From the NCBI GenBank assembly GCA_031372565.1, contig JANMLN010000018.1, positions 1-51,430 of the forward strand: a DNA stretch of 51,430 bases, written 5' to 3'. The stretch is from Gemmatimonadota bacterium. Its GTDB lineage: Bacteria; Gemmatimonadota; Gemmatimonadetes; Gemmatimonadales; Gemmatimonadaceae. The notes under the pieces are model-generated. The model did not search any database and was not told the DNA's origin. It saw nothing but the letters and a program-made list of their open reading frames with translations. The position numbers and the translations under genes were made by a program. Below, piece after piece: positions 2,814-40,106 of this stretch (the stretch's first letter is position 1; each line of letters opens with the position of its first letter).

Positions 2814-2842
2814 TTGCCGCCCTCCGGCCCGATTCCTATATT
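2814..2842 (+). promoter_or_regulatory. Sigma70-type promoter for the FHA-kinase operon
   Basis: TTGCCG (2814-2819), 17 nt, TATATT (2837-2842). Confidence 0.6.
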
Positions 2843-2888
2843 CGCCCCATCCGCTCGATCGTCCTGCTGCCCCGAGACCACCACGCAT

Positions 2889-3937
2889 TTGACCTGTGCC
2901 TTCTGCGGCGCTCAGAATGAGGCCGATGCGAAGCACTGCCAGGACTGCGGCAAGCCGCTGAGTCCGAGCGGCGCGCGCGTGATGTCGGCGTTGCGCGGCG
3001 TATCGCCATCAAGCGGGGCGCAGGTCCAGTCGGCCGCGCCGAGTCGCCCGTCGGGCGCGATGCTCGCCTGCCCGACGTGCGCGCGGCTGATCGGCGCGAC
3101 GCTCCCCTTCTGTCCGCTCTGCGGAAAGCCGACGTCGTTCAACGTCGCCACGGGGCCGTCGTGCAAGGTGTGCGGCTCGGGCTACCGCATGGGGGACAAG
3201 TTCTGCGCGCGCTGCGGGACCAAGACCGATGCGGCCATCGACGCGGCCGGCAGCGTGGGCGGGTCGACGGCCACGTTCAGCGCGCGCTCCTCGGTGACCG
3301 GTCCGAAGCTCTCGCTCCTGGCCGAAGATGGCGAGGTGATGCAGACCTTCACCCTCGACCGACCCGAGACCTCGCTCGGGCGCAACGACGGCGATATCCG
3401 CTTCTCCGAGGATGTCTTCCTGTCGCCGCTGCACGCGCAGATCTCGCATCGCGACGGCAAGCTGTTCGTCCGCGACCTGGGTTCGCGCAATGCCACCTGG
3501 TGCTTCATCGACGCGCCGCATCGCCTCATGGACGGCGACGTGATGCTCGTGGGGTCGCAGCTCCTGCGGTTCCGCCGACTCGGGTACCCGGGCCCGCATC
3601 CGCCAGAAGCGGACCAGACGCGCCGACTGGGCTCGCTCATTCCGAACGCGGACGTGGCCGTGCTCGCGCAGCTGCGCGGCGACGGCTCCGTGCGTGACAC
3701 GTTGCACCTCTCGCCGGGACGCAACGTGCGCATCGGGCGCGAGAATGGCGACTGGGTGTTTCCGTACGATCAGACCATGAGCGGCCGGCACGCGGAAGTG
3801 AATTCGCAGGACTCCGACTTCTACGTGCAGGACGCCGGGAGCCGCAACGGCGTGGCCGTGGCGGTGCGCGGCGAGCGGCAGATCAACAAGGGGAGCCGCA
3901 TCCTCCTTGGCGACCAGATGCTCCGCGTGGAAAGTCT

Positions 3938-3941
<4 letters not shown>
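2889..3941 (+). CDS. Zinc-ribbon plus tandem FHA domain protein
   Basis: Three CxxC...CxxC ribbons, then two FHA domains (LGR..SPLHA..DLGSRN; IGR..SGRHA..DAGSRNG). TTG 2889 chosen because the ORF-track start lies in the -35 box. Confidence 0.85.
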
Positions 3942-5665
<1,724 letters not shown>

Positions 5666-5848
5666 GGCCGGCGCAGATGCGCTCCGGGTCCGACGCACGG
5701 TGCGCGGCCGCTGAAACCTGCGGCGGGCGCGCAACGAACGGGAAGCCGTTGGCGCCGCATTTCGTGACCCACGTCCTTCCGTCCCGCGATTCCGTGTGGC
5801 AGCTTTGCGCCATCTGACCGTTTTCCACCCTCGCCCCCGAACCTCCTT

Positions 5849-7072
5849 GTGACCCTCCCGGACGCGGCAACGCCCGGCAGTGGCCCCGACAGCGACATCG
5901 TCGTGCACGTCTTCGGACGCACGGATGTCGGGCGCACGCGCGAGCACAACGAGGACGCGTTCGTGGTGGCCGACCTGACCACGAACAACGCGACGCTCCA
6001 GCCCGAGGTGCGCACGCATCGGTTGGGAGAGCGTGGCACGATGTTCATGGTCGCCGACGGCATGGGCGGCGCCGCCGCGGGCGAGATCGCATCCGCCATG
6101 GCCACCGAGGTGGTGCTGGCCGAGATGCGCAGGCGGTGGATGGATGGGTCCGACCTCAGTGCCGACGGGTTCGCCAGCGCGATCAAGGGATCGACGGAGA
6201 CCGCGAACACGCGGATCCACCAGTACGCGCTCGAGCACCCGGAGCACCGCGGCATGGGGACCACGGCGACCATCGCCGGCATCCTTGGCGACGCATTGTA
6301 CGTCTCGCAGGTGGGCGACTCGCGGGCCTACCTCGTGCGTGATGGCGTGGCGAGCCAGATCACCAAGGATCAGTCGCTGATCCAGAAGTTGGTCGAGGCG
6401 GGCGAGCTCACCCCCGAAGAGGCGGAACAGAGCGAGCGCCGCAACATCATCCTGCAAGCGCTGGGACCCGAGGCCAACATCAAGGTTGACCTCACGGTCC
6501 AGCAGATCCGCAAGGGTGATACGCTCGTCCTGTGCTCGGATGGCCTGTCGGGTCAGGTGCGGACGGAGGAGATCGCCGACTGCGTGAACCATCAGCCGGA
6601 CTTGGTGCAGCTCTGCAAGCAGTTGATCGACATGGCGAACACGGCGGGCGGACCGGACAACATCACCGTCGTCGCGGCGCGGTTCGAGGGCGCGGGGCTG
6701 GGGCGCGTCACGGACGGCGATGACGTGGGACACCGCAACTACCGGTTCAGTGGCGAGGCCCGGCCGACCATGCCGCTCGGCGCAGACCAACTGCCGCCCA
6801 ACGCCACCTCGGAAGTCCGCGTCCCGACGGTTCGCGTTGACCCGTCGGCGGTCACGCCACCCACCGGCTCGGCCATCATCGGCGGCGGAATGTCGGAAGA
6901 GGAGGCGAACCGCCCCACGCCTCGCGCGACGCCGGCACTCAACAAGCTCGACCTGGGCACGGTGAGCGCGATGCCCAAGGAGGCCGGCGGTCTCGGGATG
7001 ATGACCTGGGTCGGAATCGCGGCCGCGATCGCGATCGCCCTCGCGGCCTGGTCGTTCCTCTCGGGCAAGTAG
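5849..7072 (+). CDS. PP2C/Stp1-type Ser/Thr phosphatase with C-terminal membrane anchor
   Basis: GRTREHNED, VADGMGG, MGTT, VGDSRAY, LCSDGL, GGPDNIT; hydrophobic C-terminal helix. Confidence 0.95.
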   Translation: MTLPDAATPGSGPDSDIVVHVFGRTDVGRTREHNEDAFVVADLTTNNATLQPEVRTHRLGERGTMFMVADGMGGAAAGEIASAMATEVVLAEMRRRWMDGSDLSADGFASAIKGSTETANTRIHQYALEHPEHRGMGTTATIAGILGDALYVSQVGDSRAYLVRDGVASQITKDQSLIQKLVEAGELTPEEAEQSERRNIILQALGPEANIKVDLTVQQIRKGDTLVLCSDGLSGQVRTEEIADCVNHQPDLVQLCKQLIDMANTAGGPDNITVVAARFEGAGLGRVTDGDDVGHRNYRFSGEARPTMPLGADQLPPNATSEVRVPTVRVDPSAVTPPTGSAIIGGGMSEEEANRPTPRATPALNKLDLGTVSAMPKEAGGLGMMTWVGIAAAIAIALAAWSFLSGK

Positions 7073-7073
7073 C

Positions 7074-8552
7074 GTGGCGCTCGCGCTCACGGTGCGCACG
7101 GGCGCGCTCGCGGGGCGCACGTTCACCTTCGAGCATGCGATGATCTCGGTCGGGCGCGCCCCCGGCTCCGACCTCACCTTCGACGCGCAACGCGACATCG
7201 ACGTCTCGGGGAAGCACGCCGAGATCGTGGTGATCGGTTCGCGCGTGGTGATGCGCGACTTGGGGAGCACGAACGGTACGTGGATCAACGGCGTGCGCCT
7301 CGAGAGCGACAGCGAGATCTACGACGGCGACGTGATCGCATTTGGCGAGCACGGGCCGCAGGTCGTCGTCGCGGAGACCGGCCGGGCGCGGCCGGGGCGC
7401 GCAGGCGCCAGTGCGTCCGCACCCATGGCGCCGGCCACCCGCGTGTCGAACAGCGTGAAGGCACCAACGCCGTCGGTCGAGACGCCGCGCGCGTCCGCGC
7501 CGGTTGCGACGCCACCTCTCGCGCCGCCGACCGCACTGCCGACTCCGGCCGCGCCACCACCGCGCAGCACGCAGATGCGCATTGACGCGGCGGTCGAGAA
7601 GAGCACCAAGAAGCTGCAGTACACGATGATCGGCATCGCCACGGTGCTCGGACTCGGTGCGGTCGGCGCCTACGCCTACGGCAAGCGGCAGTCGGACGAG
7701 GCGATTCGAGCGCTGCAGGCGCAGGTCGATTCGTCCAAGTCGGCCTACGCGACCGCGATCACGGCAGCGGCGGGCAAGGCGGGCGGCTTCGATACCGTGC
7801 TCGCGCGCTACCAGGGCGAGATCGAGCGGCTGCGCGAGCAGATCAGCGTGGGCGGCAGCGGGGCGCGCGTCGAACAGCTGAAGCTGCAGCTCGACGAACA
7901 GCGGCGACGCGGCCAGCTCGTGATGGATGCCGCGAAGGTCGACTTCAGCGCCATCAACGAGCGGAGCGGCAAGGCGGTCGCCCTGCTCATTGTCGAAATG
8001 CCCGATGGCTCACGCTCGGCGGCCACCGGCTTCTGCGTGAGCGAGAAGGGGATCATCGTCACCAACCGGCACGCCGTGCGCGACGCGGCCAGCACCTCGC
8101 CCTCGCGGATCGCCGTGCTCTTCAACGAGACACAGGGCTGGTTGCCCGCGCATCTCGTGCGCACGAACGACGGCGAGGATGATCTGGCCGTACTGCAGAT
8201 CGACCGGCCCGGACCGTTTCCGGTGGTCGCAGGCATCGCGGGCAGCGGCGATGAGGTGAAGGTCGGTCAGCCGGTGGCGCTCATCGGCTTTCCCCTCGGC
8301 ACGGATCTCGCGCAGGAAGGGACGGGCACGAAGATTCGCGCGTCCGCGTCGCTGGGTGTCGGCACGGTGAGCAAGGTGCTCGGGCGGCTGGTCCAGATCG
8401 ATGCCTTCGCGACGCACGGGTCGAGCGGCAGTCCGGTGCTGGACGCCCGCGGCTTCGTGGTCGGCGTGGTGTATGGCGGGCCGACGGAAGCCGCAGGGCG
8501 CATCGTCTACGCGGTGCCGGCGGCGCGGCTGAACGCGGAGCTGGCGAAGTAG
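7074..8552 (+). CDS. FHA - transmembrane - coiled coil - trypsin-like serine protease
   Basis: VGR..SGKHA..DLGSTNGT (FHA); TM IGIATVLGLGAVGAYAY; catalytic triad TNRHAV, DDLAVL, GSSGSP; no PDZ. Confidence 0.9.
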   Translation: MALALTVRTGALAGRTFTFEHAMISVGRAPGSDLTFDAQRDIDVSGKHAEIVVIGSRVVMRDLGSTNGTWINGVRLESDSEIYDGDVIAFGEHGPQVVVAETGRARPGRAGASASAPMAPATRVSNSVKAPTPSVETPRASAPVATPPLAPPTALPTPAAPPPRSTQMRIDAAVEKSTKKLQYTMIGIATVLGLGAVGAYAYGKRQSDEAIRALQAQVDSSKSAYATAITAAAGKAGGFDTVLARYQGEIERLREQISVGGSGARVEQLKLQLDEQRRRGQLVMDAAKVDFSAINERSGKAVALLIVEMPDGSRSAATGFCVSEKGIIVTNRHAVRDAASTSPSRIAVLFNETQGWLPAHLVRTNDGEDDLAVLQIDRPGPFPVVAGIAGSGDEVKVGQPVALIGFPLGTDLAQEGTGTKIRASASLGVGTVSKVLGRLVQIDAFATHGSSGSPVLDARGFVVGVVYGGPTEAAGRIVYAVPAARLNAELAK

Positions 8553-8558
8553 CCAGCG

Positions 8559-10028
8559 CTACCGCCCGCGTCGCAACACCAACCACCGCGCGGCGGCCGC
8601 CTGCATGCCGGCCTCGCCACCCCACGCCGACGCAATGCACAGGTCGCCGGGAATCGCGCGCGCCCAGCGTGGATCACCGAACTGGAAGATCATCGCCTCG
8701 CGGTTGGCCTTGCGCGCTGCAAGGCTCAACTGGTCGATGCGCTGCAACGTGGCTTCCGTGTAGCCGGTACGTCCCTTGCCCGCGCGCACCTCGCCATAGA
8801 GCGCAATCACGAAGGTCGAGCGCGCACTCGGCGTCGGACCGTCGACCGGCCGCGCCTGCACCCCCAGTTCGCGCAGCGTGGTGAACAGCGGCTCGCGGCT
8901 CGGCCGGTCGGTGGCATCGGCGTCGTCGTCCACGACGACGATCTCCACGGGCGCGCGCACGAGCGGCGGCATGCCGCGCCCGATGTGAATCACCCGGTCG
9001 GTGAGCTGCGTCCCCCACTGGATGTCCGACGTGCTCGGCTTCCGGAAGTCATCGGGCGACGATGCCCACTGCGCCCACTTCCGACGGCGCCGGAGTGAGC
9101 GCTGCACGGCGGCCGCGTCCAGCACGTGTTCGTCGAGCGCCTGTGCGAGTGCCGCCAGCGTGCCATCGAGATCGCGCGGCGCGAGCAACAGGTCACAGCC
9201 CGCGGTCGCGGCCATCACCGCCGCTTCGCCCTCGGTGGCACCGTCGAGCACGGCGGCCATGCCCAGTGCGTCGCTCACGACGAGTCCGTCGTATCCGAAC
9301 GCCGTGCGCAACATCCCGCTCAGCAGGTCCTTGCTGCACGTGGCGGGCGCACCACTCGGATCGAGTTTCGGGTAGGCGACATGCGCGGTCATGAGCGCCG
9401 CGACTCCGCCGTCCATCGCTGCGCGAAACGGCATCAAGTCGCTGTCGCGCAGCTCTTCCTCTGTCGCGTCCACGCGCGGCAGCATCAGGTGCGAATCCAC
9501 TGTGGCGCGCCCATGCCCCGGAAAGTGCTTGGCCGTGGCCAGCACCCCTTCGCTCTGACATGCCTCGATCCAGATGCGGACCGTCTGCGACACCGCGACC
9601 GGATCGCTGCCCGCCGAGCGCGTACCGACGATCGGATTCTCGGGAGACAGGTCCAGGTCTGCCACGGGGCCGAGCACCCAGTTCACGCCGAGCGTGCGGG
9701 CCTCCTTGGCCGTGAGGCGCGCCGCACGGCGGATGGCATCGGCATCGCCGAGCGACGCCAGCGCACCCAACGGCGGCAGCCCGGTGCATCCGATGAACTG
9801 CTGCCCGGCGCCGCGCTCCAGGTCACTCGCAATGAGCAGCGGCGTCTTGCTGCGCTTTCGCAGGTCGCGCGTGAGCGTCCGCAGCGGGTCGGGCTCACCA
9901 CCGTAGATGATGAACCCGCCCACGCCGAGGCTCAAGGCGCGGTCGATCAGCGCCTTGTCGGCGGCATAGCCGGTGCCATCGCGCCAGTGCACGGCAACGA
10001 CGAGGAGTTCCGCGAGCTGGACGTTCAT
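8559..10028 (-). CDS. nagZ: Beta-N-acetylglucosaminidase (GH3)
   Basis: SDLERG, GPVADL, KHFPGHG..VDSH, MTAHV, SDALGM; next to anmK and murQ. Start ATG 10028. Confidence 0.9.
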   Translation of the reverse strand: MNVQLAELLVVAVHWRDGTGYAADKALIDRALSLGVGGFIIYGGEPDPLRTLTRDLRKRSKTPLLIASDLERGAGQQFIGCTGLPPLGALASLGDADAIRRAARLTAKEARTLGVNWVLGPVADLDLSPENPIVGTRSAGSDPVAVSQTVRIWIEACQSEGVLATAKHFPGHGRATVDSHLMLPRVDATEEELRDSDLMPFRAAMDGGVAALMTAHVAYPKLDPSGAPATCSKDLLSGMLRTAFGYDGLVVSDALGMAAVLDGATEGEAAVMAATAGCDLLLAPRDLDGTLAALAQALDEHVLDAAAVQRSLRRRRKWAQWASSPDDFRKPSTSDIQWGTQLTDRVIHIGRGMPPLVRAPVEIVVVDDDADATDRPSREPLFTTLRELGVQARPVDGPTPSARSTFVIALYGEVRAGKGRTGYTEATLQRIDQLSLAARKANREAMIFQFGDPRWARAIPGDLCIASAWGGEAGMQAAAARWLVLRRGR

Positions 10029-10057
10029 GCCGTGATCACGAGGAAGGATCGGGGAGG

Positions 10058-11194
10058 TCACGCTGGCGTGAACGCGCCGAGCACGCGCGGGCCGCGGGCG
10101 CCGGTGGCACCCGGCACGTTGCCCGGTCGTCGCTGGAGGTGCAGCCATCCCATCAGGGCAAACGCGACCGCTTCCTTCGCTTCGCCGTCGAAGAACAGCT
10201 CGTCGAAGCTCCGCAACCGACGCGGCGCCAACGCCTGCGCGAGCGCATCCATCATGGCCGGATTGCGCGTGCCGCCGCCGGAGGGAATCACCTCATCCAC
10301 GGGCTCGGGCACGAACCGCTCGAAGGCGAGTGCGATGGAGCGTGCCGTGAGGGCGACCGCGGTCGCGACCACGTCGGCGGCGGTGCATCCCGCGCGCGCC
10401 GCCATGCAGTCGTCCCAGAGCGCCTCGGCGTAGGCCGCACCAAAGCGCTCGCGTCCCGTGGTCTTCGGCGGGGCTTCGGCAAACCACGGGTCTGCGAGGC
10501 GGCTCACGACCGCGCTGTCGACGACCATGCCAGCCCGCGCCATCGTGCCGTCGACGTCGAACGGCAGCTCGGGCCGCGCGCGGCGCGCAATGAGGTCGAC
10601 GATCGCCATCCCCGGCCCCGTGTCGAGCGCGCGCACCGACTCCATGACGCCGCCCGGCGGCACCACGGTGAAGTTGGCCATGCCACCGAGGTTCTGCAGG
10701 GCGCGCCAGGTGGTCGGGTGACTGAACAGCAGCGCATCGGCAATCGGCACCAGCGGGGCGCCCTCACCGCCGGCGGCCATATCGCGCACCCGGAAGTCGT
10801 TGATGACATCCACGCCGGTGCGCTCCGCGATCACGGCGGCGTTCCCGATCTGCCATGTGGCAACGCGCGGCTCGTGCCAGATCGTCTGTCCATGGGAGCA
10901 GATGGCGCCGATGTCAGCGCGCGCCACGCCGGCCTCCGCGACCGCCGAGATGGCCGCCTGCGCGAGCCGTTCACCCATGGAGAAGTCGAGCGCCGTGAGC
11001 TGCGCCAGCGTCGCACGCCCCGACATCGCATGCTCCAGCTCACCGCGCTCGGCAGCCGTGTACGCGCGCTGCGTGAAGCCGATGAGCTGCGCAGCGAGCG
11101 GCGGCTCGCTGAAGCGCACCACGGCCGCGCTGATGCCGTCGAGGCTGGTGCCGGACATGAGGCCGACCATGACCGACTTGGGCGACGCGGTCAT
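10058..11194 (-). CDS. anmK: Anhydro-N-acetylmuramic acid kinase
   Basis: GLMSGTSLDG, SHGQTIWH, DMAAGGEGAPLVP, NLGGMAN, KTTGRE, KEAVAFA. ATGA overlap with murQ. Confidence 0.95.
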   Translation of the reverse strand: MTASPKSVMVGLMSGTSLDGISAAVVRFSEPPLAAQLIGFTQRAYTAAERGELEHAMSGRATLAQLTALDFSMGERLAQAAISAVAEAGVARADIGAICSHGQTIWHEPRVATWQIGNAAVIAERTGVDVINDFRVRDMAAGGEGAPLVPIADALLFSHPTTWRALQNLGGMANFTVVPPGGVMESVRALDTGPGMAIVDLIARRARPELPFDVDGTMARAGMVVDSAVVSRLADPWFAEAPPKTTGRERFGAAYAEALWDDCMAARAGCTAADVVATAVALTARSIALAFERFVPEPVDEVIPSGGGTRNPAMMDALAQALAPRRLRSFDELFFDGEAKEAVAFALMGWLHLQRRPGNVPGATGARGPRVLGAFTPA

Positions 11195-12117
11195 GTGGAG
11201 GCGACCGGCGGCGGCGCCTGCCCGGTGACCCGGCGCACCACGCCGCCGCCGTGGGCAATGGCGGCGTCGGCCGCGCTCGCATCCAGCGCGAGTGCGTGCA
11301 TCACGATGGCGCGCTTGACCATGCCGTCCGCGCGCGCGAGCAGGGCGCGCGCCGCGTCGCGATCGAGCGCGCAGACTTCCATCACGATCCGTTCGCTCCG
11401 GTCGGTCAGCTTCGCGTTGGAGGCCTTGAGGTCGACCATCAGGTTGCCGAACGTCTTGCCGATGCGGATCATCGCGCCGGTGGTGATCATGTTGAGCACC
11501 AGCTTGGTGGCCGTACCGGCCTTGAGGCGCGTCGAGCCCGTCACGACCTCGGGACCGGTCACGGGCACGATGGCGACGTCCACGGCGTCGATCATGTCGG
11601 GCGGCGGCGGCGTGCAGGCCACGAGCCCGGTTCGTGCGCCGCGCGCGCGCGCGCGAACCAGTGCTCCGCGAACGAACGGGGTGGTGCCACTCGCGGCGAT
11701 GCCGATGAGGACATCGTGCGCCGTGAGTCCTGCCGCATCGATGGCGGCGGCGCCGTCCTCGGGCCGATCTTCTGCGCCCTCCTGTGACCGCGTGAGCGCG
11801 GCCATCCCGCCGGCAATGATCCCCTGCACCATCTCGGGCTCGACACCGAAGGTGGGCGGACACTCGCTCGCGTCGAGCACGCCGAGTCGTCCGCTGGTGC
11901 CGGCCCCTGCGTAGAACAACCGACCACCCGCGCGAAACGCCGCTTCGACCAGCTCGATGGCCCTCGCCACGCCCGCACGCTGTGAGGCGACGGCCGTCGG
12001 CACGGTCGCGTCTTCGGCACAGATGAGATCGACAATCTCGAGCGGAGAGGCCAGATCGATGGCGGCCGTGCGCGGATTGCGATGTTCGGTGATGCGGGGA
12101 TCGCGCGCGAGAGGCAC
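11191..12117 (-). CDS. murQ: N-acetylmuramic acid 6-phosphate etherase
   Basis: TEHRNP, GAGTSGRLGVLDASECPPTF, GPEVVTGSTRLKAGTATK, GNLMVD. Confidence 0.97.
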   Translation of the reverse strand: MPLARDPRITEHRNPRTAAIDLASPLEIVDLICAEDATVPTAVASQRAGVARAIELVEAAFRAGGRLFYAGAGTSGRLGVLDASECPPTFGVEPEMVQGIIAGGMAALTRSQEGAEDRPEDGAAAIDAAGLTAHDVLIGIAASGTTPFVRGALVRARARGARTGLVACTPPPPDMIDAVDVAIVPVTGPEVVTGSTRLKAGTATKLVLNMITTGAMIRIGKTFGNLMVDLKASNAKLTDRSERIVMEVCALDRDAARALLARADGMVKRAIVMHALALDASAADAAIAHGGGVVRRVTGQAPPPVAST

Positions 12118-12195
12118 GGGAACGGGGCTCGGGAGGGCAGGCCCGGATTGCCTGGGCGTGCCGCGCGTGACTGTGGTGCCTCCACGCGAGGGGGT

Positions 12196-12225
12196 AAGTT
12201 ACCGGAGGCCCATGCGGCGCGCCAA
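12196..12225 (-). promoter_or_regulatory. Candidate sigma70 promoter for murQ-anmK-nagZ
   Basis: Minus strand TTGGCG, 18 nt, TAACTT. Confidence 0.4.
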
Positions 12226-12291
12226 GCGCGCGCGGGTCGCCGCATCGTGCGGCGGCGCCGGGGCCGTCCCAGCCAATGCGGAGCCTGCCTC

Positions 12292-12921
12292 GTGCGTCGC
12301 CCGATCGTCCTGGCCCTTCTCGTGCTGGCACCGCGCCTGGTCGCCGCGCAGATCCTCTCCCTCCCGAGTAACCGCACGGACGCGGGCAACTGGATCGGCG
12401 CCGGCGCCTCCCGTCTCAACTTCGTGAGCATGCGCGACGATTCGCGAGGCGCGGTCTGGAACGTGGGCGAGGTGATCGCGTACCGGGTGTCGATCGACAA
12501 GTCGTACGGGAGCGGCGCCACGCTGGGGGCGACGATCACGTGGAGCAACCCGTCCATGACGATCAACACCAACCCGACGGGCGTGTGCCCGGCGGGATGT
12601 GCGGCATCGGCCAACTTCCAGCACTATCAGCTGACCTACCGCAGCGGGGAGACGCGGGGCGGGACCGCGCCCGTCGCGGAGCTGGCGGTCGGCGGTTTGC
12701 GCGTGAGCGACGTGCGCGCGGGCGGAACGCAGGTGGCGCCCGACCGCACGTTGCTGACCATGGGCGCCGGCGGAGGGCTCGCGATCGCGACGAGCTCCAC
12801 CTTCCAGTTCGAGCTGGTGCAGGAGTACACGTGGATCTTTGCCGGCGGTGGCTTTTCCGGAGCCGCCACGCAGTGGAGCACGCGGCTCGGTGTCCGGGTC
12901 GGCTTCGGGAATCGCGACTGA
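12292..12921 (+). CDS. Secreted small outer-membrane beta-barrel-like protein
   Basis: Signal peptide RRPIVLALLVLAPRLVAA-Q; alternating amphipathic strands; C-terminal TRLGVRVGF. Start GTG 12292 inferred. Confidence 0.6.
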   Translation: MRRPIVLALLVLAPRLVAAQILSLPSNRTDAGNWIGAGASRLNFVSMRDDSRGAVWNVGEVIAYRVSIDKSYGSGATLGATITWSNPSMTINTNPTGVCPAGCAASANFQHYQLTYRSGETRGGTAPVAELAVGGLRVSDVRAGGTQVAPDRTLLTMGAGGGLAIATSSTFQFELVQEYTWIFAGGGFSGAATQWSTRLGVRVGFGNRD

Positions 12922-34063: not shown

Positions 34064-35086
34064 CTATCTCCGTGTGACGCCGAGCCCCGGGCCGGACGGC
34101 AGCGTCGTCACGCCGTTGGCAATCGTGGCGCCGACGAAGGGATCGTCCTTGAGCAATGCCGCGCCGTCCATGTCCACCGCATCGAGCAACGGCGCGAAGT
34201 GCGCGGCCGCCGAGATCCCGAGCGATGACTCGATCATGCAGCCCGTCATCACGATCATGTCGTGGGCGCGCGCGATGTGCACCATCTTGATCGCCTCACC
34301 CAGCCCGCCGCACTTGGCCACCTTGATGTTGATGCCGTCGACCACACCGACGAGGTTCTTGATGTCGCGGCTCGTCACGCACGACTCGTCGGCGATGATC
34401 GGCAGCGTCGAACGCTCGCGCACGAACCTGAGCCCCGCCAGGTCGTGCGCCGGCAGCGGCTGCTCCACGAACTCGACCCCCAACTCCTGCAGCAGCGGGA
34501 TCATCGCGAGCGTGGACTTGGGCGTCCACGCGCAGTTGGCGTCGACCCGGATGATCTTCGCGGGCGCTTCCTCCCGGACCGCGCGAATGATCTCGCGATC
34601 GCGATCGCTCCCGAGCTTCACCTTGAGGATCGGATACTGTGCCGCCTCGCGCACCCGGGAACGCGTCGTGCCGATGTCCGGCTGGATGCCGATCGTGAAG
34701 CTCGAGTGCGGTGCCGCCGCCGGATCGAGCCCCCAGAGCTTCCAGAGCGGAATGCCCAGACGCTTGCCGATGATGTCGTGCACGGCCGCACTGATGGCGC
34801 TCTTGAGCGCGCCGTTGCCCGTGATGTTCCTGTGCATCGCGGCCTCGAGCGCCTCGATGCTCCAGCTGTCCGCCTCCTCCACGATCGGGCGCAGCCGCTC
34901 GAGCACCGCGATGTTGCTGTCGACGGTCTCGCCATACAGGCCACTGGGGGCCGCCTCGCCCCATCCTTCCACGCCGTCCCGGTCGGTGATGCGGACCATC
35001 AACGTGCGCCACGTCGATTGGCCGCCCCGCGCAATGATGAACGGGTGCGTGGTCGTCAGGTGCAGCACGTCATGCGAGAGCTTCAT
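34064..35086 (-). CDS. Dipeptide (L-Ala-D/L-Glu) epimerase, enolase superfamily
   Basis: GWGEA, LKVKLG, VDAN, EQP, ADES, NIKVAKCGG, GCMIES, DMDG. ATGA overlap with the kinase. Confidence 0.9.
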   Translation of the reverse strand: MKLSHDVLHLTTTHPFIIARGGQSTWRTLMVRITDRDGVEGWGEAAPSGLYGETVDSNIAVLERLRPIVEEADSWSIEALEAAMHRNITGNGALKSAISAAVHDIIGKRLGIPLWKLWGLDPAAAPHSSFTIGIQPDIGTTRSRVREAAQYPILKVKLGSDRDREIIRAVREEAPAKIIRVDANCAWTPKSTLAMIPLLQELGVEFVEQPLPAHDLAGLRFVRERSTLPIIADESCVTSRDIKNLVGVVDGINIKVAKCGGLGEAIKMVHIARAHDMIVMTGCMIESSLGISAAAHFAPLLDAVDMDGAALLKDDPFVGATIANGVTTLPSGPGLGVTRR

Positions 35087-36093
35087 GGTCGGGTCGGGGT
35101 CGAGGCAAAGGGAGACCACGCCGCGCCGGCCGCGCGCCACTGCTCCGTGGCCGTCCCCGCACCCAGATAGCGCAGGAGCGCATCGGCCAGCTCGGCGCCG
35201 CGCTGGTAGCGGTCGTCGGGGTTCTTGGCGAGGCAGCGCATGATGATCGTCGACAGCGCCGACGGCACGCCCGAGTTGACGACGTCCGGCGCGACCGGCG
35301 CTTCGTGCACGTGCTTGTACCCGACGGAGTAGGCATCGGCGCCGTCGAACGGCGGGAAGCCGACCACGCTCTCGTACAGCATCACCCCCACGCCGTAGAG
35401 GTCGGAGCGTCCGTCGACGAGCTTCCCCATCGCCTGCTCCGGCGACATGTAGTGCGGCGTGCCCATGGCACGACCGCCCGCGGTGAGCCGCCCGTGGAAG
35501 CGCGCCGTGGCGATGCCGAAGTCGGTCAGCCGCGCGTTGCCGTCGTCATCGAACAGCACGTTGTCCGGCTTGATGTCGCGATGCACGATGCCGCGCCGAT
35601 GCGCATAGTCGAGTGCCACCGCCACCTGCGCGCTGGCCGCAGCCGCCTTCTCGGCCGACACCGTGCGCGTGGCCATCAGACGCCCGGCCAGCGAACCACC
35701 GGACAGGTAGGGCATCACGAGATACACCGTGTTGCCCGCTTCGCCGAACTCCTCGATCGGGCAGATGAACGGGTGGACGAGACGACTGGCCGCTTCGGCC
35801 TCGCGACGGAACCGCTCGCGCATCTCTTCCTCGCGCGCCAACGCTTGGTGCAGGACCTTGACCACCAACGGTCGCCCGAGCACTTCATGCTCGCCGTAGT
35901 ACACGTGCGCCATGCCGCCGGAGCCGAGGCGCTTGATGATGCGGTACCGGTTACCGGTGGCAAGGCGCAGCGCCCCCGTTTCCTCGTCGGGCTTCTCGAG
36001 GGGCGGCTCGGCCAACACCGGCAAGTCGGTCGCGCAGCGCACGCAGTTGGCCGCGCGCGCACGATTCCAGGTGCCGCAGTCAGGACAGAACAT
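35083..36093 (-). CDS. Soluble Hanks-type Ser/Thr kinase with N-terminal zinc ribbon
   Basis: CPDC..CVRC, LGSGGMAHVY, HRDIKPDN, DFG, GTPHYMSPE; no TM. Confidence 0.95.
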   Translation of the reverse strand: MFCPDCGTWNRARAANCVRCATDLPVLAEPPLEKPDEETGALRLATGNRYRIIKRLGSGGMAHVYYGEHEVLGRPLVVKVLHQALAREEEMRERFRREAEAASRLVHPFICPIEEFGEAGNTVYLVMPYLSGGSLAGRLMATRTVSAEKAAAASAQVAVALDYAHRRGIVHRDIKPDNVLFDDDGNARLTDFGIATARFHGRLTAGGRAMGTPHYMSPEQAMGKLVDGRSDLYGVGVMLYESVVGFPPFDGADAYSVGYKHVHEAPVAPDVVNSGVPSALSTIIMRCLAKNPDDRYQRGAELADALLRYLGAGTATEQWRAAGAAWSPFASTPTRP

Positions 36094-36114: not shown

Positions 36115-37152
36115 CTAGAGCCACCGACGCCACTTGAGCAGCCCCACGAGGCTGGCGCCGAGACCCAGTTGCAGCCCGAGCATCCACCAGAAACCGTGCG
36201 GAGAGTGGGACAGCGGAATCTGCTCGAAGTTCATCCCCCACATGCCGCTGATCACCACGAAGGGCACGCTCAGCGTCGCCACGACCGAGAGCCCCGTCGT
36301 GATGCGGCCCAGGCGGATCGACACTTGCGAGAGGTAGCTGTCGAGCGTGCTCGAGAGCAGGTCCCGGTACGTATCGAGGTTGTCGTTGATGCGCAGCACG
36401 TGGTCATACACGTCGCGGAAGTACACCTGCATGTCGGACGTGAGCAGCGCGGACGGCCGGTTGGTGAGGACCGACAGCACTTCGCGCTGTGGTGTGAGGT
36501 GACGGCGCAGCGACAGCACCAGCCGCTTGAGCGCGAGGATGTCGCCCAGCGCCTTCTCATCGAAGGATGCCACGACACGCTCTTCGAGGCCATCGAGCAG
36601 TTCGTCGACCTTGTCCATGACGGGGAAGTAGGCATCCACCGCCATGTCCATCATCGCGTGCAGCATCCGGTCGGCACCGCGCCCGAGCACGTCGGGACTC
36701 CGCGTGACCCGATCCACCATCTCCTCGATCGGTGCCGCGCGCCCCTCATGCGTCGTGACCAGAAATCCGCGACCCAGGAAGAAGCAGATGTTGTAGGTGT
36801 TGATGTCGTACGGGTCGTCGGTATCGTGCCGGTAGGTCACCCCGCGCACGATCAGGAACAGATACTCGGGAAACTCCTCGAGCTTGACGCGCGACTGCGG
36901 ATTGAGCACGTCCTCCACCGACAGCGGATGGAAGCCGAACAGGTTCTCGAGACACGCCACCTGATGCCGGTCCGTCACATCGAGGTCCGCCCAGAGCGGC
37001 GCTCCGCTCGAGCGCGCCGCTGCCAGATCGCGCGGCGACATGTCCGTCACCAACTGCCCGTCGTTCCGCAGCATCCACGAACGAAGGCCGCGCGCGGGGG
37101 GGCGCACGGCGGCGTCAACGACGCGCTCCGGAGGCAGGGTCGGCACAGTCAT
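36115..37152 (-). CDS. corA: Magnesium/cobalt transporter
   Basis: FHPLSVED, YFRDVYDH, GMWGMNF and two C-terminal TMs. Start ATG 37152. Confidence 0.95.
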   Translation of the reverse strand: MTVPTLPPERVVDAAVRPPARGLRSWMLRNDGQLVTDMSPRDLAAARSSGAPLWADLDVTDRHQVACLENLFGFHPLSVEDVLNPQSRVKLEEFPEYLFLIVRGVTYRHDTDDPYDINTYNICFFLGRGFLVTTHEGRAAPIEEMVDRVTRSPDVLGRGADRMLHAMMDMAVDAYFPVMDKVDELLDGLEERVVASFDEKALGDILALKRLVLSLRRHLTPQREVLSVLTNRPSALLTSDMQVYFRDVYDHVLRINDNLDTYRDLLSSTLDSYLSQVSIRLGRITTGLSVVATLSVPFVVISGMWGMNFEQIPLSHSPHGFWWMLGLQLGLGASLVGLLKWRRWL

Positions 37153-37186
37153 CTCACTAGCGATGAAAGCTACCCCGCTCCCACTC

Positions 37187-38113
37187 TCAGGCCAGCGCCT
37201 TGAGGTGCGCGACGGCCGCGGCCCCGACGGCCGGCGGCGCGTAGCCCCCTTCCAGCGCACTCACGAGGCGTCCACCCGCGGTCCGCTCGGCCAGCGCCAC
37301 CAGCGTCCGCGTCAGTCGCTCGACATCGGCAACCGTGAGCGTGAAGCCACCCAACGGATCGCCCGCCAGCGAATCGAAGCCGGCCGACACGAGCACCAAC
37401 TGCGGGTCCCATCCCGCCGTGGCCGCCCGCACCGCCCCTTCGAGCGCCTCCACGTAGGTCGCGGGAGACAGGCCGGCCGCCATCGGCACGTTCCACACCG
37501 AGTCGTGCGGGCCGCGATCTTCGGCGCCGCCTGTGCCCGGGTACCACGGCCATTGGTGCATCGACACGAACCGGATCGCGGGATCATGCTCGACCAGCGC
37601 CTGCGTCCCATTGCCGTGGTGGACGTCCCAGTCGACGATCAGCACGCGATCCAGCCCGTGGCGCGCGCGCGCGTAGTGCGCTGCCAGCGCCACATTGCCA
37701 AACAGACAGAAGCCCATCCCTGCCGCGCGAAGCGCATGGTGCCCGGGCGGCCGTACGGCGCAGAAGCTTCGCAGCACCGTGCCGTCCAGCGCGAGATCCA
37801 CCGCATCAAGCAGACAGCCGGCGGCGGCCGTCGCCGCGTCCCACGACCCGTCGCTCACCACCGTGTCGCCGTCCAGCGCGCCGCCGCCTGCGGCGGCCAG
37901 CTCGCGTACCCGCGCGACATAGGCCGCGTCATGCGCGAGCGTGAGCTCGTCTGCCGTCGCGTGACGCCCTTCATGGTGATGCAGCGCGAGCATGAGTTCC
38001 GGCTCGTCGCGCAGCGCACGCGTGATCGCCCGGATCCGGCCCACGTGCTCCGCATGATCCCAGCCGGTGTCGTGTCGGCCGCAGTCGCTGTGCGAAATGA
38101 AGCCGGTGGGCAC
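37187..38113 (-). CDS. Histone deacetylase family (Zn-dependent lysine/amine deacetylase)
   Basis: HAEHVGR, RPPGHHA, GFC, DWDVHHGNGT, SAGFD, LEGGY. Confidence 0.95.
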   Translation of the reverse strand: MPTGFISHSDCGRHDTGWDHAEHVGRIRAITRALRDEPELMLALHHHEGRHATADELTLAHDAAYVARVRELAAAGGGALDGDTVVSDGSWDAATAAAGCLLDAVDLALDGTVLRSFCAVRPPGHHALRAAGMGFCLFGNVALAAHYARARHGLDRVLIVDWDVHHGNGTQALVEHDPAIRFVSMHQWPWYPGTGGAEDRGPHDSVWNVPMAAGLSPATYVEALEGAVRAATAGWDPQLVLVSAGFDSLAGDPLGGFTLTVADVERLTRTLVALAERTAGGRLVSALEGGYAPPAVGAAAVAHLKALA

Positions 38114-38119
38114 GCGCCC

Positions 38120-38446
38120 CTAGCGGACCGGGCGTCGGCGACGGTGCGAAATCGAGAGCGTCGCGTGCGCAGGGATCCCCGCGTCAGCGAGTCCAAGCGA
38201 TTCGTCACGAAGCTCCACGCCACGGTGCTTTACCACGAAGTCGTCGTGAAAGTCCGCTGCCGGATCGAGCGCGGCGAGCGCGGCCACCTTCACCGCCAGC
38301 ACGGGCTCGTTGGCCGGCGCATCGACGAGCACGGTGTCCCAGGCTTCGAGCAGCTGGACGCGTACCGTCGTGCGCGGCGCACTCGCGGGCGCCAGCACGA
38401 TCGGCTCGCCCTGCGTGCGCAGATGATCAGGAAACGGCGTGCTCAT
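38120..38446 (-). CDS. Stand-alone ubiquitin-like (beta-grasp, YukD/EsaB-like) protein, 108 aa, with no C-terminal GG
   Basis: C-terminal part of the 38120..39253 ORF from ATG 38446 (ATGA overlap). By-eye alignment to ubiquitin, e.g. [24 protein letters not shown] versus [23 protein letters not shown]. Confidence 0.75.
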   Translation of the reverse strand: [108 protein letters not shown]

Positions 38447-38739
38447 GGCTCGGCGGCAGGCGGCAGCGTGGACAGAAAACGGGCCAGCTGCTGATCGAAC
38501 AGGTAGCTGCCCCCGGTCACTTCGGTGGCCCCCTCGTGCAGGCGGGCGGCAACCACGACCTCCTCGCCGCCCTGCCCCCGGAGCGCCACGTATCCGGGGC
38601 CTTCGCGCTCGAGGAAGGCGACGTACACGCTTTGCGCTCCCGAGAAGAACGCCTTCGCCGCCGTCATGGCCGCGTCGGGTGACAGCGAGGTGCGGGCCAC
38701 CTGCATCGTTCGGTGGCTCTGGAGGTGCGATGTGGTCAT
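38443..38739 (-). CDS. Small hypothetical alpha/beta protein (87-98 aa)
   Basis: ATGA-coupled on both sides; protein-like sequence. Confidence 0.75.
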   Translation of the reverse strand: MTTSHLQSHRTMQVARTSLSPDAAMTAAKAFFSGAQSVYVAFLEREGPGYVALRGQGGEEVVVAARLHEGATEVTGGSYLFDQQLARFLSTLPPAAEP

Positions 38740-40106
38740 GGCGGGTTCGCCGCGAGCGCGCGCGCGCGCCGGGGCTCCTCGTATTCGAGCGGCAGCTCGA
38801 GGGTGAAGGTGGAGCCGGCCCCCTCGACCGACTCGAGCGCAATGTCGCCACCAAGCAATCGGGCGAGCCGACGCGCCAGCGCGAGCCCGAGCCCGGACCC
38901 GCCGTAGCGGCGCGTCGCGGACCCGTCGACCTGACGAAACTCGTCGAAGACCATGCCTTGTGCGTCCAGCGGAATGCCGATTCCGGTGTCATGCACCACG
39001 TACCGGCCGCGCCCCTCGACCACGGACGCCGACACCGTGACGTCGCCACGCCGCGTGAACTTGTAGGCGTTGCCCAGCACTTCCTCGAGAATGCGCGCCA
39101 GCTTCGCCTTGTCCGATCGCATCGACGGCAGCACCCCGTCCGGCTCGTCGATCCGCAGCAGCACGTCAACGGAGCGACCGGGGGTCGCGGCAATCGCGTC
39201 GCGCAGCGGCTCGCGCACGTCGAACTCGCTGACCGCGACCGGCAGCGTGCCATGCTTGAGCGAGGTCAGCTCCAGCAGGTTGTTGACGAGCACGACCAGC
39301 CGTTCGCTCGAGGCACGCACCTGGGCCAGATCACTGCGCTGATCGGCGGTCAACGGGCCGCTGACCTCCTCTTCGAGCAGCGCGAGATAGCCCAGCGTCG
39401 CCGTGAGTGGCGTGCGCAGCTCGTGCGAAATGTTGGCGAGAAACTCGTCCTTGATCCGGCGCGCCTCGCGCACCGCCACATACTGTGCATCGAGTTCCTC
39501 GTTGGCATCGGCCAGCGCCGCCTTGGTGCGGGCGAGTTCTTCGGTGAGCGCAGCCTTCTCCGCCGTCGCTGCGAGCTGTTCCGACACCATCTTGAGCAGG
39601 GCACGCCGCTCGGGCCCCGGACTTCCGGGCTGCGCGAAGTAGAAGGTGGCGGTGCCGAGCACCTGGCGACCGATCGTGAGCGGCAACGCAACGAGCGCAC
39701 GGAACCCGATCTCCTGCGCCACTTCAGCCCAATCCTCGAGCGAGGGATCCGCCGTGATGTCGGGAATCTCGATCGGGCGGCGCTCACTCACCGCTTCGCC
39801 GCTCGGCCCGAAGCCGACGCGAACGCGCATCTGGCCCAGCCACGGCTGATACTGTTCCGGCCAGTTGCTCGCGGCCACCAGCCGCATCAGCTCGCTCGCG
39901 CCATCGACGAGGTACACAGAGGCGAACGATGCGCCGACCAGCGGCAGCACGCGATCGAGCGCGAACTGAAAGACCTCCGCCGGCTGATCCGCCGTGAGGA
40001 ATGCGTGCACGATCTCGCGGACGGCCCCCAACTCTTGTTGGGCCGGAAGGGCAGCGCCGCCGGACGGGCGCGCCCGCTCGCCATGGGACCTCGAGGCGCG
40101 AAGCAC
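38736..40106 (-). CDS. Soluble GAF-domain sensor histidine kinase
   Basis: GAF region, coiled coil, SHELRTPL, GNAYKFT, DTGIGI, FRQVD, GGSGLGL. Confidence 0.95.
   Translation of the reverse strand: MLRASRSHGERARPSGGAALPAQQELGAVREIVHAFLTADQPAEVFQFALDRVLPLVGASFASVYLVDGASELMRLVAASNWPEQYQPWLGQMRVRVGFGPSGEAVSERRPIEIPDITADPSLEDWAEVAQEIGFRALVALPLTIGRQVLGTATFYFAQPGSPGPERRALLKMVSEQLAATAEKAALTEELARTKAALADANEELDAQYVAVREARRIKDEFLANISHELRTPLTATLGYLALLEEEVSGPLTADQRSDLAQVRASSERLVVLVNNLLELTSLKHGTLPVAVSEFDVREPLRDAIAATPGRSVDVLLRIDEPDGVLPSMRSDKAKLARILEEVLGNAYKFTRRGDVTVSASVVEGRGRYVVHDTGIGIPLDAQGMVFDEFRQVDGSATRRYGGSGLGLALARRLARLLGGDIALESVEGAGSTFTLELPLEYEEPRRARALAANPP

Follow-up and report, generated by a model that had tools for sequence, protein, structure and literature searches.

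In bacteria, ubiquitin-fold proteins are known as Gly-Gly sulfur carriers or conjugated modifiers that work with E1-type enzymes, or else belong to a few non-conjugated adaptors such as YukD. A 51,430-nucleotide (nt) stretch of DNA from a Gemmatimonadota bacterium of the family Gemmatimonadaceae (GenBank assembly GCA_031372565.1, contig JANMLN010000018.1, positions 1 to 51,430; this whole stretch is hereafter the window) raises the question of what a ubiquitin-like protein does when it has neither the Gly-Gly end nor the gene neighbors by which these groups are recognized. The protein, hereafter Ubl, is encoded by an open reading frame (ORF) of 108 amino acids (aa) at 38120..38446 on the reverse strand, stop codon included, and ends in RRRRPVR. 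An earlier reading of the letters and their translations, made without database searches (the sequence-only reading), had described it as a hidden, stand-alone ubiquitin-like protein with a polybasic tail in place of Gly-Gly. The answer reached here, from translation, homologs, the substitution pattern, AlphaFold2 and Foldseek, is that Ubl is an uncharacterized, lineage-specific relative of the bacterial ubiquitin-like adaptors, marked by its RRRRPVR end and by a fixed small partner, the 98-aa product of the gene directly upstream (hereafter p98), with which it would act as a non-conjugated adaptor with a docking tail. Taken as a whole, this answer could fall either way; the part concerning identity is near-certain, and the part concerning mechanism, which is built on analogy, is tentative and rather likelier to fail than to hold.

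The question begins with whether Ubl is a gene at all. Translation places the ORF and its RRRRPVR end exactly where the sequence-only reading had put them, and the ATG (38446-38444) shares an ATGA (38443..38446, reverse strand) with the TGA of the upstream 98-aa ORF, which bears out the translational coupling that had been proposed. The ORF is indeed buried in longer frames: a same-frame shadow ORF of 377 aa (38120-39253, reverse strand) encloses it, and an antisense shadow ORF of 484 aa (37040-38494, forward strand) lies over it. The upstream part of the 377-aa ORF has a guanine-plus-cytosine (GC) content by codon position of 0.63/0.82/0.67, which is a non-coding pattern. In this DNA of 69% GC, the sense and antisense frames of the Ubl gene were not separable by GC per codon position, and relatives were therefore compared. 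The comparison covers the 47 genes with exactly 108 codons among 80 (79 loci plus the window), in which the fraction of differing sites at codon positions 1/2/3 is 0.34/0.28/0.50. When the differing codon pairs of these 47 genes are read in the sense frame, 26707 are synonymous and 53953 non-synonymous; the antisense frame gives 7665 and 72995, respectively, and is interrupted by stops in 15 of the 47 homologs.

Conservation of the ORF is seen at the protein and genome levels. In a word-indexed protein search with Ubl, 133 of 232 candidates passed E ≤ 1e-3; most of these are 107-113 aa long, their identities go down to 44%, and the named organisms among them all belong to Gemmatimonadota lineages, with a homolog in Roseisolibacter sp. 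H3M3-2, a cultured member of the group, included. A locus search with a 16-sequence sub-alignment of the family found a relative encoded in 185 of 338 candidate stretches (one genome per species), from which 80 loci, with 6 kb fetched on each side, were kept as the neighborhood sample; 79 of their titles give Gemmatimonadota or a lower rank, and that of L012 reads “uncultured bacterium”. Furthermore, when 1.84 billion cluster representatives were searched exhaustively with a profile, 262 proteins passed E ≤ 1e-3, 150 passed E ≤ 1e-10, and 19 passed E ≤ 1e-30. The window and the 80 loci showed neither a second Ubl copy nor a paralog of the shorter subfamily described below. Judged from third-position variation, synonymous substitutions, and the relatives in 185 genomes, the Ubl ORF is a real coding gene, and its family is uncharacterized and, in these searches, so far known only from Gemmatimonadota. 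“Hidden” is a less fitting word, since relatives are annotated as “hypothetical protein” in the records of the National Center for Biotechnology Information (NCBI), and the short subfamily as “EsaB/YukD family protein”. No paper on the RRRRPVR family was found in the open-access literature, judged by titles and the beginnings of abstracts, with subscription journals outside this scope; the papers that came up there deal in general terms with beta-grasp proteins and bacterial ubiquitin-like proteins.

The likeness to ubiquitin that the sequence-only reading had seen by eye is real at the level of the fold. Structure prediction followed by Foldseek, the check proposed there with a beta-grasp fold as the expected outcome, returned that fold: the AlphaFold2 model, calculated from a 32-sequence alignment, has a mean predicted local distance difference test score (pLDDT) of 90.5 and a predicted template-modeling score of 0.83, and shows the order beta-beta-alpha-beta-beta, with strands at residues 25-32, 37-44, 70-74, and 96-101 and a helix at 49-60. 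The protein is accordingly laid out as an N-terminal extension (residues 1-24), a beta-grasp core (approximately 25-101), and the terminal RRRRPVR, and the last eight residues have a mean pLDDT of 74, consistent with a flexible tail. Foldseek gave 338 matches in the Protein Data Bank (PDB) at E ≤ 0.001, headed, at E-values around 1e-5, by ubiquitin and its variants, ISG15, NEDD8, and the bacterial ubiquitin-like protein BilA; the top alignments span 76-88 columns at 15-23% identity, with template-modeling (TM) scores of 0.71-0.84 (single-domain targets, normalized by target length), and 8tyx_A aligns with TMq 0.66 and TMt 0.84. Sequence profiles point in the same direction more faintly. The family profile matched, among PDB sequences, 5zmb_A (“ubiquitin-like protein”) at E=4.7e-5, FAT10 at 2e-3, and BilA at 0.018, and in Pfam, 22 of the 32 family members match DUF2604 (PF10790; best E=4.8e-5), 19 match YukD (PF08817; best E=5e-6), and 14 match UBL_UBAC1. 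The ESM Atlas places Ubl among unnamed Gemmatimonadota clusters and clusters with a low share of DUF2604 or YukD, and the window protein has no match in NCBIfam. No paper was found for DUF2604 in an open-access full-text search, the name carrying no functional information, nor for 5ZMB in the open-access literature. On the predicted model, Ubl falls within the ubiquitin-like beta-grasp superfamily by fold, and weakly so by profile. As a separate observation, the profile also retrieved three giant metagenomic proteins, P0287 (1662 aa), P0318 (1378 aa), and P0360 (1423 aa), which are built of 14-17 PF00240 ubiquitin domains in tandem (best Pfam E 8.9e-255).

The most distinctive part of the protein is its end. 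The motif, encoded at 38123..38143 on the reverse strand, is the family signature: in 32 diverse sequences, residues 102-108 form the best-conserved block of the protein, with R102, R103, and R104 invariant and R105, P106, V107, and R108 at least 90% conserved. Exactly RRRRPVR followed by a stop closes 51 of the 80 Ubl genes, and most remaining tails differ by one change (for example RRRRAVR, RRRQPVR, RRRRPIR, or one extra Ser). At the DNA level, synonymous changes occur at every position of the motif, and no Arg position draws on fewer than four of the six Arg codons (positions 1, 2, 4, and 7 draw on five, and position 3 on all six). Furthermore, RRR[RQ]P[VI]R followed by a stop occurs 56 times in the six frames of 749,017 bases (the window and 80 loci), every time at the end of a Ubl gene. 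Because the tail codons vary synonymously and the downstream genes differ between loci, selection acts on the peptide and not on an overlapping DNA signal. The “polybasic tail” of the sequence-only reading thus stands as far as a basic end without Gly-Gly is concerned; it falls short in that the end is more than a basic run and, judged from its conservation, is a specific near-invariant terminal motif under selection at the protein level. The net charge of Ubl minus its last eight residues is -4.5 in the median and -7 for the window protein; the tail contributes +5. A shorter subfamily of 83-100 aa has the same RRR(R/Q)PVR end and lacks the 24-residue N-terminal extension; its members, with Gemmatimonadales as the source, include P0301, P0303, P0313, P0317, P0334, and P0343 among others.

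Could such a tail still be attached to other proteins? Ubl would then be a covalently conjugated modifier with an unconventional C-terminus, exposed by proteolytic trimming or handled by a ligase encoded elsewhere. The fold and the length of the tail, seven flexible residues past the last strand, are similar to those of ubiquitin, and the structural neighbors include BilA, a conjugated bacterial protein. Arginines in the tail of ubiquitin contribute to its recognition by E1. Against this, and as had been noted from the window translation, Ubl has no C-terminal Gly-Gly; such an end is present in none of 79 homolog tails, and a single terminal Gly is present in two, both atypical extended variants. 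Conservation extends to the final residue, and this speaks against the tail being cut off. E1/ThiF, E2, JAB, and type VII secretion domains are absent both from the 40 other window ORFs scanned, in agreement with the sequence-only reading, and from 20 representatives of recurrent or upstream neighbors drawn from the 80 loci; no other ligase was seen in the window or among the recurrent neighbors, and PADLOC gave no match to a Bil-type system. Conjugation is on these grounds very improbable. Ubl therefore resembles ubiquitin, ISG15, NEDD8, FAT10, and BilA in fold and in the short flexible tail after the last strand, but differs from them in ending in RRRRPVR and in having no E1, E2, or deubiquitinase genes nearby; the window protein has neither the Gly-Gly end nor the E1/E2/JAB neighbors of the conjugatable proteins as a class (ubiquitin, SAMP, ThiS/MoaD, and BilA). 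Ubiquitin-like proteins of E1/E2 operons are the subject of PMC11601603.

If Ubl is not conjugated, the nearest bacterial precedent is YukD/EsaB, and the simplest form of that comparison would have Ubl serve a type VII secretion system as an orthodox YukD/EsaB component. The Pfam YukD matches of 19 of the 32 family members, up to E=5e-6, speak for it, as does one member of the short subfamily, named “EsaB/YukD family protein [Gemmatimonadales bacterium]” at NCBI, which passes the YukD cutoff (30.9 against 27 bits; another member reaches 25.3 bits). The window Ubl itself, however, has no YukD match at E ≤ 1, and neither the window nor the recurrent neighbors in the 80 loci contain a type VII gene, FtsK/EssC-type ATPase, WXG100, and EssB/YukC being the components sought. 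Gemmatimonadota are diderm bacteria in which no type VII secretion system is known. This orthodox role is scarcely credible. The broader comparison is more instructive: both are small beta-grasp proteins without a C-terminal Gly-Gly, linked by a weak but repeated profile similarity. YukD is described as not conjugated (PMC1779556) and as holding the type VIIb core together, in that it binds YukB and helps YukB to associate with the pseudokinase YukC (PMC12637312). This non-covalent assembly role, bridging to a pseudokinase, offers the best functional analogy for Ubl (PMC12637312). Ubl differs in its occurrence in Gemmatimonadota, its RRRRPVR end, its N-terminal extension, its fixed 98-aa partner, and the absence of type VII genes nearby; by the PF08817 cutoff and by locus, the window protein falls outside YukD/EsaB on both counts. 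The absence of conjugation enzymes together with the missing Gly leads us to infer a non-conjugated adaptor.

The gene for p98 lies at 38443..38739 on the reverse strand, and its product was followed by translation, alignment, AlphaFold2, and Foldseek. It adjoins Ubl directly upstream in 78 of the 80 loci, with the 4-nt overlap of p98 stop and Ubl start in 73 of those 78; in L040, the contig end cuts the p98 side. The overlap implies that p98 and Ubl are made together. The pair is kept while its flanks change (a histidine-kinase gene, usually found upstream, is absent in 7 of 72 loci, and one of two different genes follows), and the pairing is thus conserved. The “stand-alone” of the sequence-only reading accordingly needs correcting: the neighborhood survey it had called for, carried out over the 80 loci, found p98 as a fixed partner, usually together with a kinase bearing a GAF domain, and no conjugation or type VII genes among the recurrent neighbors. 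As judged from this gene order, Ubl is not stand-alone and is the second gene of a conserved, p98-coupled pair. Common ancestry of the two proteins was considered and rejected, with an hhalign probability of 0.06, and their joining in a single-linkage clustering is an artefact. Two proteins that seemed to be natural fusions, P0430 (534 aa) and P0431 (320 aa), were likewise rejected as frameshift-garbled read-throughs from error-prone contigs, spanning p98-Ubl-MoxR or the kinase end, p98, and Ubl. A prediction of the p98-Ubl complex scored 0.01 against a mark of 0.32, was run without controls, and is not used as evidence in either direction.

By sequence, p98 belongs to no known family. It matches nothing in Pfam or NCBIfam, Pfam applied to 41 family members gives no real family (a lone hit at E=0.2 is spurious), and PDB sequences give nothing better than E=0.77. 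The ESM Atlas returns only unnamed Gemmatimonadota clusters, and of 8000 candidates scored with a profile, 6699 protein clusters passed E ≤ 1e-3. The alignment shows A28, F31, Y39, R54, G55, G57, E59, E60, Y79, R87, and F88 to be invariant, and thus an invariant core R-G-x-G-x-E-E with the consensus FRGQGGEE. The AlphaFold2 model (pLDDT 88.1) has the topology beta-alpha-beta4-alpha. In Foldseek against the PDB, no match reaches E ≤ 0.001; the best is 2zfd_B (E=3.1e-3, TMq 0.65), and the nearest structures are the regulatory domains of CIPK (2zfd_B and 2ehb_D), KA1 domains (4yom_A and 5wi2_A), and SRPBCC/AHSA1/START proteins. A topology like that of KA1, CIPK-regulatory, and SRPBCC domains is therefore a lead from the predicted model, and a lead to topology only.

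These matches bear on a reading in which the tail binds a non-protein polyanion, such as RNA or the ribosome, acidic lipids, polyphosphate, or cyclic diguanylate (c-di-GMP), and the Ubl-p98 pair is a small sensor or tether. KA1 domains bind acidic phospholipids, and the START/SRPBCC matches of p98 also concern ligand-binding domains. The tail has five Arg in its seven terminal residues, conserved at the protein level, and its last six residues, RRRPVR, fit the RRxxxR pattern of PilZ c-di-GMP-binding proteins; in 4 of the 80 loci, the second gene upstream of the kinase encodes a TPR-GGDEF protein. RNA or ribosome binding has been proposed for the TGS and RnfH beta-grasp proteins. However, the p98 fold matches all lie above E=1e-3, Pfam detected no PilZ or other nucleotide-binding family, and the acidity of the globular domain (median -4.5 once the tail is left off) speaks against the domain as such binding nucleic acids. 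The architecture of the pair does have a precedent in the START-RnfH beta-grasp pair next to smpB (PMC1779556). In beta- and gamma-proteobacteria, RatA (START/SRPBCC) and YfjF/RnfH form such a pair, in which a small alpha+beta gene is followed at once by an overlapping stand-alone beta-grasp gene, without conjugation enzymes (E. coli locus; PMC1779556), and the p98 fold matches do include SRPBCC/AHSA1/START proteins. On the other side, p98 is approximately 60 residues shorter than RatA, and no smpB lies beside the pair in the window. Homology was rejected at hhalign probabilities of 0.11 (Ubl family against YfjF) and 0.12 (p98 family against RatA), values whose sensitivity is limited by the single-sequence templates; values near 0.1 mean that no relation to the E. 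coli proteins was found. The RatA-YfjF/RnfH pair is hence an architectural analogue only, and polyanion binding is rather unlikely.

The wider neighborhood offers two further candidate partners, of which the first is a kinase. The p98 ATG overlaps, again as ATGA, the stop of a gene at 38736..40106 (reverse strand) for a soluble GAF-HisKA-HATPase_c histidine kinase of 456 aa (Pfam: GAF_2 4.4e-18, HisKA 6.5e-19, and HATPase_c 5e-25), the first member of an ATGA-chained trio. Of the 72 loci whose upstream flank measures 1.5 kb or more, 65 have an ortholog of the kinase directly upstream of p98 on the same strand, at gaps of -39 to 353 nt. Gene order thus suggests that a single operon usually holds the pair and a soluble GAF histidine kinase. 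Where the kinase is lacking, unrelated genes stand upstream: those for an alpha/beta hydrolase, an ABC ATPase, an M20 peptidase, or, in L064, NikA-like and small unknown proteins. In L018, L025, and L041, the gene of a 415-aa protein without a Pfam match stands there, itself preceded by the end of a BatA...DUF4159 operon. In 5 of the 80 loci (L011, L013, L031, L046, and L048), an NtrC-type sigma-54 response regulator (REC-Sigma54_activat-HTH_8) is encoded approximately 1.5-3.5 kb upstream of p98, either next to the kinase gene on its upstream side or separated from it by one gene; it may be the cognate regulator of the GAF kinase, and no gene for such a regulator was found in the window.

Downstream of Ubl, the 62 loci with at least 1 kb of flank divide without remainder between two mutually exclusive arrangements. 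In 26, a histone-deacetylase-family (HDAC) gene follows, in the order HDAC-CorA/GvpLF-Ser/Thr kinase-enolase-superfamily; in the window, this gene (PF00850, Pfam 2.2e-84) occupies 37187..38113 on the reverse strand and starts 6 nt past the Ubl stop. In the other 36, a MoxR AAA_3 ATPase gene follows, in the order MoxR-DUF58-BatA-742-aa protein-DUF4159. As far as gene order indicates, the HDAC gene is a variable neighbor outside the conserved core. Membership of a defense system was also considered and rejected: PADLOC, Bil-type systems included, gave no match for the Ubl, p98, kinase, or HDAC gene.

The frequency of the second arrangement raises the possibility that the pair is an accessory of the MoxR AAA+/DUF58 (VWA-like)/BatA operon, Ubl serving as an adaptor or substrate-like element for the ATPase as Ubl/UBX proteins do for p97 and the proteasome. 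In all 36 of those loci, MoxR directly follows Ubl on the same strand; in at least three loci (L042, L044, and L073), the MoxR start as listed falls 3 nt short of where the Ubl ORF ends, so that the two overlap by 4 nt, and the three kinase-less loci L018, L025, and L041 have the end of the same operon just upstream of p98-Ubl. Set against this are the window, with no MoxR or DUF58 homolog in its 51 kb, and the 26 HDAC loci, in which no MoxR was detected within 6 kb on either side and 23 of which show no part of the operon; the adjacency could, moreover, be conserved gene order. A role tied to MoxR is, on balance, decidedly unlikely.

The reading preferred here is therefore the non-conjugated adaptor. 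Ubl would not be covalently attached to targets and would act as a non-covalent structural adaptor in the manner of YukD/EsaB, in a proposed complex with p98. Its flexible basic tail, borne on an acidic globular domain, might dock onto an acidic surface of a partner, for which the co-transcribed histidine kinase would be the first candidate. What we infer, by analogy with such adaptors, is the contact with p98, the part played by the tail, and whatever influence there may be on the kinase. Several points weigh against this reading. The window protein's own best Pfam match, to the uncharacterized beta-grasp family DUF2604, stays below the gathering cutoff (E=0.0074, 17.1 bits against 25; residues 26-100 on profile positions 4-78 of 85). 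In L045, the kinase is followed directly by Ubl with no room for p98, so that the pairing is not absolute unless this contig is misassembled. No natural p98-Ubl or kinase-Ubl fusion was found (the 2 hits among 8000 candidates being the read-throughs described above), which is weak evidence. The kinase, furthermore, is not next to the pair in the 7 loci already mentioned, and HisRS, a thioredoxin-reductase-like gene, PurA, and an M20 peptidase are shared by the loci and the window as recurrent genes; the region is thus core chromosome, syntenic across the family, and the adjacency of the kinase may in part reflect inherited gene order and not function, so that caution is due for any neighbor outside the p98-Ubl pair. 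A bolder version, in which RRRRPVR-COOH is the functional counterpart of the ubiquitin tail, a recognition peptide in an as yet unrecognized system, with the GAF kinase, MoxR, or an unlinked enzyme as its reader and p98 as its receptor or chaperone, would make this a Gemmatimonadota-specific kinase-Ubl module without E1/E2 chemistry; it is an improbable one.

Alongside the Gly-Gly proteins and the YukD-like adaptors, the Ubl family adds a third signature to the bacterial ubiquitin fold, namely a near-invariant Arg-rich C-terminus combined with a translationally coupled partner of no known family, and it is common throughout an entire phylum of soil bacteria, mostly in connection with a histidine kinase. 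Should the tail turn out to be a docking or recognition element, this would be another bacterial use of the ubiquitin fold in signaling and would give a function to two abundant families of “hypothetical proteins”. In kind, the finding is no surprise, stand-alone bacterial beta-grasp proteins being widespread.

Some features of the surroundings deserve mention in their own right. Three recurrent neighbors have no Pfam match at E ≤ 1e-5: a protein of 506 aa in 28 loci (representative L077:78-1598), one of 742 aa in 21 (L060:9262-11490, within the MoxR/Bat block), and one of 263 aa in 13 (L025:11542-12333, on the opposite strand). In the window, four signaling genes lie together at 2814-8552 on the forward strand, encoding a double-zinc-ribbon/FHA protein, a Ser/Thr protein kinase, a PP2C phosphatase, and an FHA-trypsin-like protease, and a second Ser/Thr kinase, with an N-terminal zinc ribbon, is encoded at 35083-36093 on the reverse strand, three genes downstream of Ubl. 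The reverse-strand segments 803-2734 and 8559-12117 look like a set for peptidoglycan recycling, with Amidase_3, a glycoside hydrolase of family 3 (NagZ-like), the anhydro-MurNAc kinase AnmK, and a SIS-domain protein (MurQ-like); here, a 757-aa ORF at 10058-12331 is mostly shadow, and its C-terminal half, AnmK, is the part that has support.

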